Below are positions 9,548 through 32,000 of a stretch of 32,000 bases of DNA, piece after piece. Each line of letters begins with the position of its first letter. Position 1 is the stretch's first letter. The translations under genes and the position numbers were made by a program. Under the pieces are notes generated by a model, which searched no databases, was not told where the DNA came from, and was given only the letters and a program-made list of their open reading frames with translations. Origin of the DNA: an uncultured archaeon (lineage in GTDB: Archaea; Asgardarchaeota; Thorarchaeia; Thorarchaeales; Thorarchaeaceae); NCBI GenBank assembly GCA_964354495.1, contig CAYHAA010000004.1, positions 60,001-92,000 on the forward strand, in the 5' to 3' direction.

Positions 9548-9690
9548 AGTCTACACTTCGGGAAACCCTTAGTTATGTGATTTAGTATTATGTTTTGTTA
9601 AAGGGCAAAGTAAAGTGCTCTTCTCAACAGACCTTTTAGAAAGAGATATAGAGAGTCCTTTGAAATCGCACAACTATCTGACTAGGAGAC

Positions 9691-10926
9691 ATGACCATGG
9701 GTTACGACATAATCGTGGTTGGCACAGGTCCTGCGGGACTGATGACCGCTGAGCGTGCATCCATGCAAGGACTGAAGACGCTAGTACTGGAGAAACGTGC
9801 TGCTGCAACAGACTCGTTGATGGGGGAGCTCGTGACAGACAATGCGCTGAATCTTCTCAGAGTCAAGCCAGACTCCGAATATGTCGGGAACAAGTTCACT
9901 TCGATTGTTGGAGAGAGCCTTGATACAGGATCAAACATCGTAGTCGATAGGACCCTTCTTGGTAATTCCTTCCTCCTTGATGAGCATAACTGCAAAGAGC
10001 TCATGCGAGATAGAGCTCTGGCGGATGGTGCAGAGTTCAGATACAATAGTAGTGTCAAGTCAGTTGTCAAAGAAGGAAACACGGTGGTCGGCGTCAAATA
10101 CAACAGCAACGACGAAGACAGAGCGGGCCTATCTGTGGGTGCAGATGGCTCCTTCAGCAAGGTCTCAGAAACTGCGGGCTTTACTCACCCAAAGTGGCTT
10201 CTCAGCTACGGGCACAGATTCAAGCTTGCAAACTGCAAGAGTATTGACCCGAACGTCGCATACTTCTATGTTGGCAAGGACGTCGGACTCGGATACCTTT
10301 GGCTATACCCAAGATCTGAAACCGAAGTGAATCTCGGAATTGGAAGGGTGCCGTCATCAAAAGTGAACTGGCACAGCCTGCCACCAATGCAGGATGTACT
10401 CAGGAAATATATGAAGACACATCCTGAAACCGCGAACGCCAAGATTGTTTCTGTCAATGGAGGTGTCGTTCCCTGCGCAGGAATCATACCAGGATTCACT
10501 GATGCAGGCGTAGCACTCTGTGGGAACGCAGCAGGTCAGGTCTCGTCGATAGTGGGGGGTGGTGTCACGACATGTCTTCATGCGGGACAAGTTCTGGCGA
10601 AACATGCAAAGAGAATGGTAGACAGCAATGACTTCACCAAGAAGAGCGTGTACCTCTATGAGAAGGAGTACAGGAGGTCCAAACTCGCCTCGAACATCAC
10701 TAACACTGGAAAGGGAATGTGGGCAGTATCCAAGTACTCTATGCTCAATGACCCAATTGCCGCAGCTGAGATTGTGCTTGGAGAGCTTGATGCGAGAACG
10801 CTCAATGAGCTTATCCAAGGTCATGCGAGCATTGCTACGTACATGACACTCATGACGGGCTTCTTGCCAATGGTAGTAAAAATCGGAGTCGGATACCTGA
10901 AAGCAATCGCGATGACAAGCCTTTAG
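9691..10926 (+). CDS. Geranylgeranyl reductase family FAD-dependent oxidoreductase
   Basis: DIIVVGTGPAG, VGADG, GYLWLYP (the PxxYxWxFP-type GGR motif) and GNAAGQVSSIVGGG. Start at 9691 or 9697. Confidence 0.85.
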   Translation: MTMGYDIIVVGTGPAGLMTAERASMQGLKTLVLEKRAAATDSLMGELVTDNALNLLRVKPDSEYVGNKFTSIVGESLDTGSNIVVDRTLLGNSFLLDEHNCKELMRDRALADGAEFRYNSSVKSVVKEGNTVVGVKYNSNDEDRAGLSVGADGSFSKVSETAGFTHPKWLLSYGHRFKLANCKSIDPNVAYFYVGKDVGLGYLWLYPRSETEVNLGIGRVPSSKVNWHSLPPMQDVLRKYMKTHPETANAKIVSVNGGVVPCAGIIPGFTDAGVALCGNAAGQVSSIVGGGVTTCLHAGQVLAKHAKRMVDSNDFTKKSVYLYEKEYRRSKLASNITNTGKGMWAVSKYSMLNDPIAAAEIVLGELDARTLNELIQGHASIATYMTLMTGFLPMVVKIGVGYLKAIAMTSL

Positions 10927-10941
10927 CTCAAAGAGCTTGAA

Positions 10942-11070
10942 ACAGGGACAACCCCCCCCCCCCACGCCACCGTGCTTCGTATACCGGTGTTCTTACCGGC
11001 ACGCCCTGTACCATGCTGCCGTGGATTACCTTAAGGGAATCCACCCCGGTAGCAGCACTTAGCCGCAGCC
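10942..11070 (-). ncRNA. Candidate structured non-coding RNA of unknown family
   Basis: GC-rich island between convergent genes with nested stems read by eye: GUGCUGC/GCAGCAU, GUGGAUU/AAUCCAC, CGUGC/GCACG, CGGU/ACCG, ACAGGG/CCCUGU. G-U pairs favour the minus strand. TATATT lies about 30 nt upstream of the first G. Confidence 0.5.
10952..10963 (+). repeat. Poly-C homopolymer (12 nt)
   Basis: Counted directly: C x12. Confidence 0.9.
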
Positions 11071-11141
11071 TTTACTATTATCGAACTTTACTTGAATATA
11101 GCTCGTCAGACTCTGGAAAACGAGTTCTGATAACACTGACC

Positions 11142-12251
11142 TCATAGCCCAGATAGGGAGCTTACGGTAGTCGACGCTTGCTCTACTACCCAAGTCTTGT
11201 CCTTTGAGAGTGTCACAAATATGTCATCACAGGCTGCCTGAAAATCCTCATACAGCCCATACTCGCCTCCAGCGGCATATGGATGACCACCGCCATTAAA
11301 GAACTTCGCCGCCATGTTACACAATACAGTTTCTCGTCCTCTCCGTATTCCGAGCATTCCGCCTAGGCTCAACATGAGAAGTAAATCTGCAACCTCCAAA
11401 GACTCACCATCAAACCTCAGATTCTCAGGATCAGAAGCAAACGTGCCCATATCCGTGGAGGTCAGGCCATTGGGAATCTCAACTATCCGAACAAGTCGAT
11501 TATAGAGAACATGGTCACTATGTCCTGCAAGCGCCTTTCGCATCTTCTTAGCTTTCTCTTTCCGATAATGGTCAACACGTTTGTCTAGTAGTTGGTCCCT
11601 GAACTTCTTGTTTGCATCATCCCAGACTCCGACCACTCCACTCTCGGCAAGCTTTGAGAGGACTGGATAGAGTGCGTCTAGAACCTCTTCACCTTTATCA
11701 ATGGCTCCGAATCGAAGGACTGACACAGCATCAGTAAGCGCGTTAGCAGCAGGTATCTCCCTGAGATTAAAATCGGTATCGTGAGCGATTCTTGCAAGCT
11801 CAGCACAGACTTCATCGCGGGGCATCAAGACCTTCTGTGCTATCTCGGCTGCACAGTAGTCATGGTTAATCTTCAATACGGGTCTGTTGGGAAGTGAGAG
11901 TATAGCTTTGATTGACTGTTCAGACCATTGGTGATGATCTAACCAGACTAGGCGGCATCCCTGAGTCAATGCACGTGAGAGACCCTTGATAATGACGTCT
12001 TGCGTTGTTTCATCCATTCCAAGGTCGGTGACAACAATCAGTGTATCACGACGTGACGCAACTCCCGAGAACACCTGCTCGAACGCACCATAGTCAGTGA
12101 GATTCACACTGAACTCAAGCGTTTTTGACTTAGCGTACCTCCACACGATAGCAGCCGATGCTAATCCGTCAACATCCTTATCGTGGGAGAATGAGAGGAG
12201 AGAAGTAATCCTCTTTGTTTCTGCAGACCCGCTTTCTTGTCCTTCAGCCAT
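11142..12251 (-). CDS. DHH-family phosphoesterase (NrnA/RecJ-like)
   Basis: SHDKDVDG, VTDLG, LDHH, AHDTD and C-terminal GGGHPYAAG. Confidence 0.88.
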   Translation of the reverse strand: MAEGQESGSAETKRITSLLSFSHDKDVDGLASAAIVWRYAKSKTLEFSVNLTDYGAFEQVFSGVASRRDTLIVVTDLGMDETTQDVIIKGLSRALTQGCRLVWLDHHQWSEQSIKAILSLPNRPVLKINHDYCAAEIAQKVLMPRDEVCAELARIAHDTDFNLREIPAANALTDAVSVLRFGAIDKGEEVLDALYPVLSKLAESGVVGVWDDANKKFRDQLLDKRVDHYRKEKAKKMRKALAGHSDHVLYNRLVRIVEIPNGLTSTDMGTFASDPENLRFDGESLEVADLLLMLSLGGMLGIRRGRETVLCNMAAKFFNGGGHPYAAGGEYGLYEDFQAACDDIFVTLSKDKTWVVEQASTTVSSLSGL

Positions 12252-28571: not shown

Positions 28572-28709
28572 ATGACTTGTCCGGAATACAAAGCGTCCGA
28601 AGGGAAGTGTGGTGTTGATGGCTTCAAGTTTTATAGCGGCATGAATAAGCCCTGCGAGGTTCCTGGCATAACCAAGGCGAAGTGCCCGAGATTCGCTATG
28701 TCGAAGTAA
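28572..28709 (+). CDS. 45-aa four-cysteine microprotein (absent from the ORF track)
   Basis: Translated by hand: MTCPEYKASEGKCGVDGFKFYSGMNKPCEVPGITKAKCPRFAMSK*. It fills an otherwise empty gap and is followed by a hairpin. Confidence 0.65.
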   Translation: MTCPEYKASEGKCGVDGFKFYSGMNKPCEVPGITKAKCPRFAMSK

Positions 28710-28732
28710 TCCGCAACAAAGCTCAACAAGAG

Positions 28733-28752
28733 AGGGCAGCGAATGCAGCCCT
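28733..28752 (+). terminator. Hairpin downstream of the microprotein, between convergent genes
   Basis: AGGGCAGC-GAAT-GCAGCCCT (7 of 8 pairs). Confidence 0.35.
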
Positions 28753-28795
28753 AAAGCCTTTCTAATAGACCTAGTTTTCTCAACATGTGGAGAAT

Positions 28796-29544
28796 CTAAT
28801 TCTCAAGTGACCCACCAACAGTCCCAAGGCCATGATAAGAGATATCCAGCAGAGGCTGGCTTATGGATCTCGTGGTATAGATTGACGGTTCTGCCACTCC
28901 GCTGCTCGCAAGAAACCACCCTATCATTCATGTATATGTGAACATAGTTGCTGGGGGATCAAGAGGCGACCATTAGTTCCAAGGGGTAAATCAATGTCAA
29001 CGAACAGGTCAATATCAAGCGAGGTCGTCACATCCAACCCTGAGTCGGTGAAGGCCACATCCTCGGTGAAGGTGAAGTGTAGGTTGCCAATGCCGCTCAC
29101 AATGAACTCGTGTCCGGCCAGCACAGCCCCGTTGCCATAGACCACAGATACATTGACCGACCCTGAGACGTAGATGTCATACGACGCTCCATTCCCAAGC
29201 CTGATATCAATCAGCTCGATTCTATGACCGGAGCCCTCGCTCACACTCACAGCGAACTGGAGAAAGTCCTGTAGCGCCTGATAGTGGGCATAGTGATGGT
29301 TGCCCGGAGTATACTGCGTGACATCGACAGCATACATCAGGTCAGCGTCATCTACAAATGTAATCGTCACATTTGTGTCCACTAGCTCATCAAGGTCAAT
29401 GAACACATACCGAGTTTCGCCTGACGGGTACTGCTACTCATAGTGAAAGACAGTCTGCGTGGCTGGCAGTCCAACGAAGACCACCAGCACTCCGACTACC
29501 GTGATGAGTATGATGCCTGCTCCGACCACTCGTTTCGCAACCAT
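28796..29544 (-). pseudogene. Membrane-anchored beta-rich protein gene interrupted by an in-frame TAG and possibly a later frameshift
   Basis: ATG 29544 with GAGGTGA RBS gives MVAKRVVGAGIILITVVGVLVVFVGLPATQTVFHYE*(TAG 29436-29434)QYPSGETRYVFIDLDEL..., in frame with track ORF 28924-29406. A protein-like continuation in another frame runs to 28796. Confidence 0.6.
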
Positions 29545-31217: not shown

Positions 31218-31253
31218 ATCTAGACTAGCAGAAAGTGCCGCAGGATGCCGGAA

Positions 31254-32000
31254 TCAACAGCTGCGGCATTCGCTTTCTTTTCCTTTAATTAGCTCTCGGT
31301 TCCAGTATCTATAGGCGCTCTTGAAACCCAGTTTTGTATAGAGACTCTTTGCCTCAGTATTACCTGTTTCGACCTGGAGATAGGCACGCTCAGCCCCGAA
31401 CTCCTGTGCCCATGTGCCCAATTCCCTGCTTATTGCGGTTGCAGCTCCTCTATTCCTCATGTCGGGAAGTGTAGCTACGCTGAACACACCCAACCAAGGG
31501 CCCTCAACAACTCCAAAGCCAACTGATGCAATGGCTCCATCTATTGAGGCCTTGGCGTAAGTGTGGGGTTGATTTGTTCTCTTCATGATTGCGAAGCGAG
31601 TAGTCATTGTTGAGGGCTCATGGCCTGATGCTATGCCGTAGGTATCAATCCACTCATCAGTCATCTCGGGGAGTGTTTCGGTTTCACATTCAGATCGAGC
31701 TCCAGCAAGCGTCGATAGGTCAGCGGTCCAGACATCTACTTGAAGGCCTACTGAAAATCCCCTCTGTGCCAACTCTTCGTCAAGTTCCCTCGGCTGACTT
31801 GCTTCGGTCATCTGAAAACTAGGAGTGAGGTCTCTACAAACATAGAACTCAACTGCTGAGTCAATGGCAAGAGAAAGTGGCAGACCGGGAAACTTCAGGG
31901 GTAGTACACTGTTTGCGCGTCTGGTCACCCCATGGTCGGCCCTCAGTAGCCAACCGCCCAGCCGCATCTTCTCCTCAGCCACCCAGGCATTGTGACTGAG
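31254..32000 (-). CDS. GNAT-family acetyltransferase (5' end outside window)
   Basis: Frame is open to the window edge (LSHNAWVAEE...GGWLLRA..GVTRRANSV). Acetyl-CoA motif VATLPDMRNRGAA, AYLQVETGN..A..LYTKLGF. Confidence 0.9.
   Translation of the reverse strand, partial: LSHNAWVAEEKMRLGGWLLRADHGVTRRANSVLPLKFPGLPLSLAIDSAVEFYVCRDLTPSFQMTEASQPRELDEELAQRGFSVGLQVDVWTADLSTLAGARSECETETLPEMTDEWIDTYGIASGHEPSTMTTRFAIMKRTNQPHTYAKASIDGAIASVGFGVVEGPWLGVFSVATLPDMRNRGAATAISRELGTWAQEFGAERAYLQVETGNTEAKSLYTKLGFKSAYRYWNRELIKGKESECRSC

Follow-up and report, generated by a model that had tools for sequence, protein, structure and literature searches.

Several bacterial small RNAs are transcribed divergently from the gene of their own regulator, as in the pairs OxyS/oxyR, GcvB/gcvA, and SgrS/sgrR. 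In archaea, the Hgc RNAs (HgcC, HgcE, HgcF, and HgcG in Rfam) were found through composition, as GC-rich RNAs in the AT-rich Methanocaldococcus and Pyrococcus. Riboswitch-controlled antisense RNAs are also known, including AspocR with its B12 riboswitch in Listeria and the S-box antisense RNA of the ubiG operon in Clostridium. To our knowledge, almost nothing is known about Asgard archaeal non-coding RNAs other than the universal ones. The SECIS elements of Asgard archaea have a quartet at the base of a 7–15 bp upper stem and an A-rich apical loop, and are located in the 3′ UTR of a gene with an in-frame UGA (PMC11227280).

Here we describe an intergenic element in the genome of an uncultured member of the Thorarchaeia. 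The analyzed stretch of DNA, hereafter the window, comprises 32,000 nucleotides of contig CAYHAA010000004.1. As in systems of the OxyS/oxyR type, the RNA of its relatives shares a compact divergent promoter region with DNA-binding regulator genes; this arrangement is seen in the relatives but not in the present genome, from which the TrmB-like regulator genes have been deleted. Unlike those systems, the host is archaeal, the promoter is of the TATA type, the regulators are TrmB-like, and no Hfq-type module, seed, or target is known. The element resembles the Hgc RNAs in being a G+C-richer island of hairpins with its own promoter in a poorer intergenic background, but it matches them in neither sequence nor structure and differs from them in lineage and fold. 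Like AspocR and the ubiG S-box antisense RNA, it is a structured RNA directed from its own promoter into the 3′ end of a convergent gene. It differs from both in that no known aptamer class is matched, the candidate switch helix does not covary, and most members have a T run before the neighboring gene. Finally, it is similar to the Asgard SECIS elements (PMC11227280) as a conserved, hairpin-rich RNA element situated just past a stop codon in Thorarchaeia, but it contains no quartet, A-rich apical loop, or GAA_A bulge and lies on the strand opposite to that of the adjacent gene.

In all probability, the element is a genuine minus-strand gene whose product is a folded non-coding RNA that matches no described family. 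An initial annotation of this DNA had read it as an unannotated structured RNA with its own TATA box, and that reading is now supported by homologues, covariation, and promoter distance.

The RNA gene and its surroundings

The gene and its immediate surroundings are organized as follows, in positions of the window:

9691–10926, plus strand: convergent neighbor, a geranylgeranyl reductase family gene (Pfam GGR_cat and FAD_binding_3; NCBIfam TIGR02032)
10939–11070, minus strand: structured body of the RNA, containing the family helices P1–P4 (covariance-model match at 10939–11067 with 54.7 bits for model R1 and 69.4 bits for model R2; covariation)
10952–10963, minus strand: run of twelve G forming the apical loop of P4
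11095–11100, minus strand: TATA-like box TATATT of the RNA gene, of a kind common to the family, beginning 33 nt upstream of the model match
11142–12251, minus strand: upstream neighbor, a DHH/RecJ-like phosphoesterase gene (Pfam DHH; weak NCBIfam RecJ match), adjacent to the RNA in this genome only

When the sequence was read again, the minus-strand letters, TATA-like box, and G12 run reported in the initial annotation matched exactly, and the convergent gene pair that it had placed around the element corresponds to the reductase and DHH/RecJ-like genes. Read directly, the minus strand has TATATT at 11100–11095, then an AT-rich stretch, and then a G+C-richer body from about 11070 to 10939. 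The abrupt change of composition claimed near 11070 is borne out by a GC content of 0.63 at 10950–11049 versus 0.43–0.50 in the flanks. The poly-G tract is not an artefact of sequencing or assembly, as a run of five to nine G occupies the same loop in every family member seen; the twelve found here are the longest.

The element is present as a single copy in its own genome. Folding of this sequence by itself gives z-scores of −0.9 for the minus strand, which is not significant, and −2.2 for the plus strand. This weak signal is due to the G12 run, which pairs promiscuously with any pyrimidine stretch. The above-chance evidence for the RNA comes instead from the comparison of homologues. Elsewhere in the locus, a conserved promoter-like motif, AGAAAGAGATATAGA, is found at about 9620–9650, upstream of the reductase gene, both here and in most relatives.

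Homologues and distribution

BLAST retrieved eight relatives from the same genus with 75–78% identity. Their alignment contains a conserved upstream AT-rich box, compensated hairpins, the G run, and a downstream T run. A covariance model built from four of these relatives (R1) gave exactly one match per genome in 24 of the 27 genomes of the genus, as well as further matches in four other genera of the same Thorarchaeia family. A second model (R2), built from 60 matches, was searched against 150 Asgard genomes; it matched 14 of the 26 genomes of the element's own family and none of the 124 genomes from 26 other families. Turning off the search filters recovered weaker copies in additional genera, again at the same site. 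In a metagenome scan with the P4 pattern, every full-length copy lay beside both neighboring gene types, with no new context, and the matches to P4 only were unrelated terminator-like hairpins.

Homologues, for which the initial annotation had proposed a search, do exist in Thorarchaeia, with a single copy per genome. As judged from these distributions, the RNA very probably represents an undescribed family confined to one family of Thorarchaeia. A literature search found no description of this Thorarchaeia RNA.

Secondary structure and covariation

Covariation was counted over 40 distinct sequences in an alignment fitted to the covariance model. Standard pairing occurs in 92.8% of helix cells, and 27 of the 34 pairs show changes on both sides. 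None of 500 shuffles reached any of the observed values, and controls with slid partners paired in 35–48% of cells. The covariation through which the initial annotation had suggested checking its candidate is thus strong, and RNAalifold agrees: applied de novo to a plain MAFFT alignment of 20 members, with no model fit, it recovers P1, the core of P2, and both parts of P4. The family fold maps onto this copy as follows:

11052–11066, minus strand: P1, 5′ hairpin GCGGC/GCUGC with loop UAAGU (compensatory changes in all 6 model pairs)
11021–11044, minus strand: P2, hairpin GUGGAUU/AAUCCAC (94% of cells pair; double changes in 4 of 6 pairs; top variable)
11001–11020, minus strand: unpaired conserved junction with consensus GGGCAUGkUACAGGGCA (columns nearly invariant in alignments A2, A3, and A6)
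10983–11000, minus strand: P3, variable hairpin GCCGGU/ACCGGU (6 of 6 pairs covary)
10939–10978, minus strand: P4, 3′ hairpin GAAGCA.GG.GGCG / UGUCCCUGUUUC with the G run as its loop (double changes in 9 of 14 pairs)

The most conserved part of the family is P4, whose near-invariant sequence consists of ACGAAGCAGGG, a bulge, a short inner helix, and the G-run loop, closed by CCCUGCUUC. Conservation also extends to the linker after P1, which reads A-ACUCC-G across the family. In relatives, P2 could be extended by the flanking segments UCCG/CGGG, which are compatible with pairing yet almost invariant, and hence unproven as a helix. P3 is absent from locus L077 and from many members of genus g3; it is missing from several lineages and is therefore peripheral. 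An insertion that contains a second G run gives the 3′ hairpin two G-rich loops in one Thorarchaeia lineage (L103:3750–3879 and L131:3735–3877).

Scans of column covariation found no pairing partner for the junction, and an all-against-all scan for extra helices or pseudoknots returned only isolated, clade-correlated pairs. Likewise, pairing between the G loop and the pyrimidine-rich 3′ tail had a mean z of +0.3 over 35 loci. A C run matching the G loop occurs only in genus g3, in two cases inside the reductase coding sequence.

The five-helix fold drawn in the initial annotation survives in part. Two of its helices, GUGGAUU/AAUCCAC (equivalent to P2) and CGGU/ACCG (within P3), are conserved and covary. 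The other three are not retained: GUGCUGCU/GGCAGCAU and CGUGC/GCACG are peculiar to this genome, and ACAGGG/CCCUGU, which can form in about 74% of family cells, is matched at that level by 117 of 500 column shuffles. The pseudoknot or switch that had been proposed between ACCGG and CCGGU performs no better than shuffles (263 of 500). For the present copy alone, the two folds are about equally stable, at −33.3 kcal/mol for the family fold versus −32.5 kcal/mol for the earlier one.

The pairing of the junction CAGGG with the CCCUG of P4 bears on a different reading, in which the RNA would be a riboswitch-like aptamer that determines whether transcription stops after P4 or continues into the reductase gene to give antisense RNA. 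Aptamers typically combine conserved junction nucleotides with peripheral hairpins that vary or can be lost, a pattern seen here. The RNA is directed from its own promoter into the 3′ end of a gene, and the pairing of CAGGG with CCCUG could provide the alternative conformer. We nevertheless regard such a switch as highly improbable. The alternative helix shows no covariation and is broken exactly where the competing P4 is compensated (L083 and L089), the CAGGG of the junction is not conserved in genus g3, and there is no likeness to any Rfam riboswitch. In addition, we know of no dependence of archaeal termination on hairpins.

Strand, promoter, and 3′ end

The modelled helices contain 123 G-U cells versus 18 A-C cells, and folding is more stable on the minus strand in 35 of 36 sequences. 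Together, these observations favor the minus strand as the functional one. The argument from G-U versus A-C pairs, first made for this copy, consequently holds family-wide. A plus-strand function would have to be a structure in the reductase 3′ UTR or a long leader of a TrmB-like operon; it would draw on the fact that the reductase and TrmB-like genes are co-directional in relatives, with the element between them, and on an A run past the reductase stop codon that can be read as a plus-strand TATA box. This is barely credible in view of the pair counts and stabilities above, and the inner helix of P4 contains two G-U pairs in most sequences. It also sits poorly with the persistence of the element here, where no TrmB-like gene lies downstream, and with a TATA box held at a fixed distance on the minus strand.

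At 32 of 35 loci, the start of that AT-rich, TATA-like box precedes the first hairpin by 27–34 nt. This agrees with the initial claim that the RNA has its own TATA-like promoter and fits the predicted start near 11070. Transcription would begin approximately 25 nt downstream of the box at 11095–11100.

At the other end, most of the genus has a run of T6–T8 located 18–25 nt after P4 and before the reductase stop codon. In this genome and at loci L074 and L075, no T run occurs before a T5 at +57 to +59 after P4. The corresponding feature is:

10878–10882, minus strand: first T5 run downstream of the RNA, antisense within the reductase gene, and the likely 3′ end here if termination occurs at this run

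The transcript may extend to this T5, for a length of about 190 nt. As a result, the RNA of this genome may be longer than that of its relatives and partly antisense to the reductase gene.

Comparison with known RNA families

Rfam 15 gave no match in the whole window at gathering thresholds. When the threshold was relaxed to E ≤ 10 over 10800–11250, the only match was a chance one to SNORD60 (15 bits, E 6.2) inside the DHH coding region. ARAGORN found no tRNA or tmRNA gene in the window. The initial annotation had been unable to match the element to tRNA, 5S, SRP, RNase P, or SECIS, and had named a hit to an Rfam family as an outcome that would count against it; the Rfam, ARAGORN, and motif checks lead to the same absence of matches.

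Identity with 5S, SRP, or RNase P RNA is ruled out, as the genome encodes all three elsewhere (5S on contig C24, 53 bits; SRP RNA on C3, 91.6 bits; RNase P RNA on C7, 157 bits) and the element matches none of them. An Asgard eukaryote-like SECIS is excluded by the absence of the (A/G)UGA_GA quartet and the A-rich apical loop, by the strand, which is opposite to that of the reductase gene, and by the lack of an in-frame UGA in the latter. In euryarchaeal SECIS elements, a GAA_A bulge separates the lower stem from a short G/C upper stem; here, the GAA of ACGAAGC is not bulged but forms covarying pairs at the foot of P4. For box C/D sRNAs, the C box RUGAUGA and the D box CUGA are both missing from the family consensus as well as from the RNA body of this copy. 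A box H/ACA sRNA was rejected by inspection, which revealed neither tandem G-A pairs nor an internal loop that is large and symmetric; ACA follows P2 in only some members of the genus (as CACAAC) and in neither genus g3 nor this copy. A cis-acting riboswitch or leader is excluded because the gene that follows the RNA in its direction of transcription is oriented convergently, both here and in relatives. A U6-like reading (5′ hairpin, GAUACAGGG, AGC, bulged hairpin, U tail) was dropped, given that ACAGGG is not conserved in genus g3.

The searches for universal RNAs also revealed two features elsewhere in the genome. Contig C7 has two archaeal RNase P RNA matches above the Rfam threshold, at 28603–28942 and 31249–31574 (157.5 and 110 bits), which are on the same strand and 2.3 kb apart; a duplicated gene would be unusual. 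The SRP RNA match at C3:175418–175729 scores 91.6 bits, just below the Rfam gathering score of 96.5, and a second, partial match (C3:174398–174504, 35.7 bits) is located on the opposite strand at a distance of about 1 kb.

Genomic neighborhood in relatives

Among the 69 Thorarchaeota loci searched, 46 have a model match. In nearly all of these, the RNA is convergent with the reductase gene and its 3′ end lies 20–45 nt past the reductase stop codon. On the other side, relatives have two or three paralogous genes of approximately 300–350 codons, which are divergent from the RNA and have no Pfam or NCBIfam match. The predicted structure of a divergent neighbor (pLDDT 82.7) comprises a winged helix, a coiled coil, and a PLD-like domain, and matches TrmBL2 and TrmB over its full length (Foldseek E 2.6e-11).

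Two conserved sequences are associated with these TrmB-like genes. A 24-nt element (ACTAACTTTATGACTGTATACAAC and variants) is situated at a fixed distance between them and the RNA TATA box, ending 8–10 nt upstream of the box in most Thorarchaeia genera (e.g. L105:2692–2790). It contains the palindrome TGTATACA and could be either an operator or the region in which the divergent TrmB-like gene starts. In addition, a covarying palindrome, TACTCA-N4-TGAGTA, overlaps the TrmB-like start codon (e.g. L078 and L105), with a compensatory variant, TACCCA...TGGGTA, at L084. This palindrome is either a candidate operator or a candidate hairpin masking the start codon.

The rearranged loci L092 and L129 separate the two sides of this neighborhood. 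In both, the RNA is apart from the reductase gene yet still divergent from a TrmB-like gene, and the 24-nt element, TATA box, fold, pyrimidine-rich tail, and T run are all intact. Of the independent rearrangements, two keep the RNA with the TrmB-like gene and one, that of the present genome, keeps it with the reductase gene. Since one syntenic neighborhood is common to all copies, the argument from context rests on few independent events. Within this limit, the fact that the RNA stays together with TrmB-like genes suggests that both are regulated from a promoter region in common. A 491-codon gene, apparently for a membrane protein, lies between the reductase gene and the RNA at L129:1177–2652 in one metagenome-assembled genome.

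The position of the RNA relative to the reductase gene raises the question of cis-antisense regulation, in which the RNA would pair with the 3′ UTR or last codons of the reductase mRNA and alter its stability or termination. The nearly constant 20–45 nt spacing from the stop codon fits this mechanism, and no T run crosses the RNA gene on the plus strand, such that the reductase transcript probably reads into it. The T5 of this genome and of L074 and L075 falls inside the reductase gene, and adjacency to that gene has been kept here while the regulators were lost. However, a covarying fold of four hairpins with conserved junctions would be needless for a pure antisense RNA, the T6–T8 run ends the RNA ahead of the stop codon in most of the genus, and L092 and L129 maintain promoter, fold, tail, and T run away from the reductase gene. 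No complementarity between the RNA and the reductase 5′ region was seen by eye. On balance, we consider cis-antisense control of the reductase gene improbable.

A natural deletion variant

The DHH gene adjoins the RNA in this genome because of a deletion, which was located by similarity to the sister genome G012:

11101–11104, no strand: deletion junction, with about 2.95 kb lost (TrmB-like genes and 24-nt element)

The distance between the DHH gene and the RNA is about 3 kb in both G012 and G004. On alignment with G012, similarity covers the 3′ flank of the DHH gene as far as about 11103 and begins again with the TATA box. Relative to these two genomes, the alignments show a precise deletion in which both the TATA box and the RNA were left in place. 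Neither TrmB-like paralogue was found anywhere in this genome, which is 97.7% complete, and the 24-nt element is absent from it in a search allowing up to 3 mismatches. The RNA therefore persists here without its usual upstream neighbors.

This copy is also an outlier in sequence. It scores 54.7 bits with R1, versus 100–150 bits for its genus, and is 64% identical to the sister's copy, versus 92% for the adjacent gene. The ACUCC before P2, near-invariant in relatives, is reduced to AC. In P4, an extra bulged C is needed and one inner pair is lost. All four family helices can still form.

These departures could mean that, in this genome only, the gene is a decaying relic of a family that is functional elsewhere, having become silent or useless after the regulators and upstream promoter region were lost. 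The deletion reaches within about 3 nt of the TATA box, no TrmB-like paralogue was found in the genome, and the loss of ACUCC, the additional P4 bulge, the growth of the G run to twelve, and the missing T run before the reductase gene would be expected of a decaying gene, as would the low score and the low identity to the sister. Set against this are the retained fold, at −33.3 kcal/mol with four helices formable, and two observations on the sister genome. Its P1 reads GCAAC/GUUGC, a compensatory change which implies that the structure was under selection until recently. Its copy, with the regulators retained, is even more divergent (31.9 bits with R1), and fast evolution therefore predates the deletion. 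Decay of this copy is accordingly a serious alternative, but still an unlikely one.

Proposed function and significance

The explanation that we prefer for the observations as a whole, though tentatively and with less than even confidence, is a structured RNA gene of about 130 nt that is linked to regulators, acts in trans or binds protein, and is represented here by a divergent copy. Covariation supports a fold of four hairpins with strongly conserved unpaired junctions and a near-invariant 3′ hairpin that displays a G run. The conserved junctions, the near-invariant P4 with its exposed G run, and the dispensability of peripheral hairpins suggest that the RNA is recognized by a protein or by a second RNA, and do not point to simple antisense pairing. 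A regulator-linked RNA that is trans-acting or protein-binding is our best guess for its mode of action, and the recognition surface would be formed by the invariant junction nucleotides together with the P4 stem and G loop. In ordinary Thorarchaeia, synthesis of the RNA would be controlled with, or by, the divergent TrmB-like regulators at the short promoter that they share. The copy studied here, with those regulators deleted, may have become deregulated or may be decaying.

More specific proposals can be made for the conserved parts. The RNA might form the core of a ribonucleoprotein specific to Thorarchaeia, or belong to a new class of ligand-sensing RNAs, with the junction as a tertiary core and the G loop docking a protein or a pyrimidine-rich RNA; we give this rather little weight. 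It is speculation that the G loop mimics a Shine-Dalgarno sequence, for which the G run alone would pair, with flanks that vary between genera.

The family has several uses for the study of these organisms. Its covariance model is ready for use in annotation. The natural deletion variant helps to separate the parts that belong to the RNA gene (TATA box and fold) from those that belong to its neighbors (24-nt element and palindromes). As a single-copy structured RNA that is tied to TrmB-like regulators and conserved throughout one family of Thorarchaeia, the element provides an entry point for studying gene regulation in a barely cultivated lineage. If the proposal of a ribonucleoprotein core or ligand-sensing RNA is true, it would represent a new functional class of structured RNA, distinct from ordinary base-pairing small RNAs, in the archaeal lineage closest to eukaryotes.
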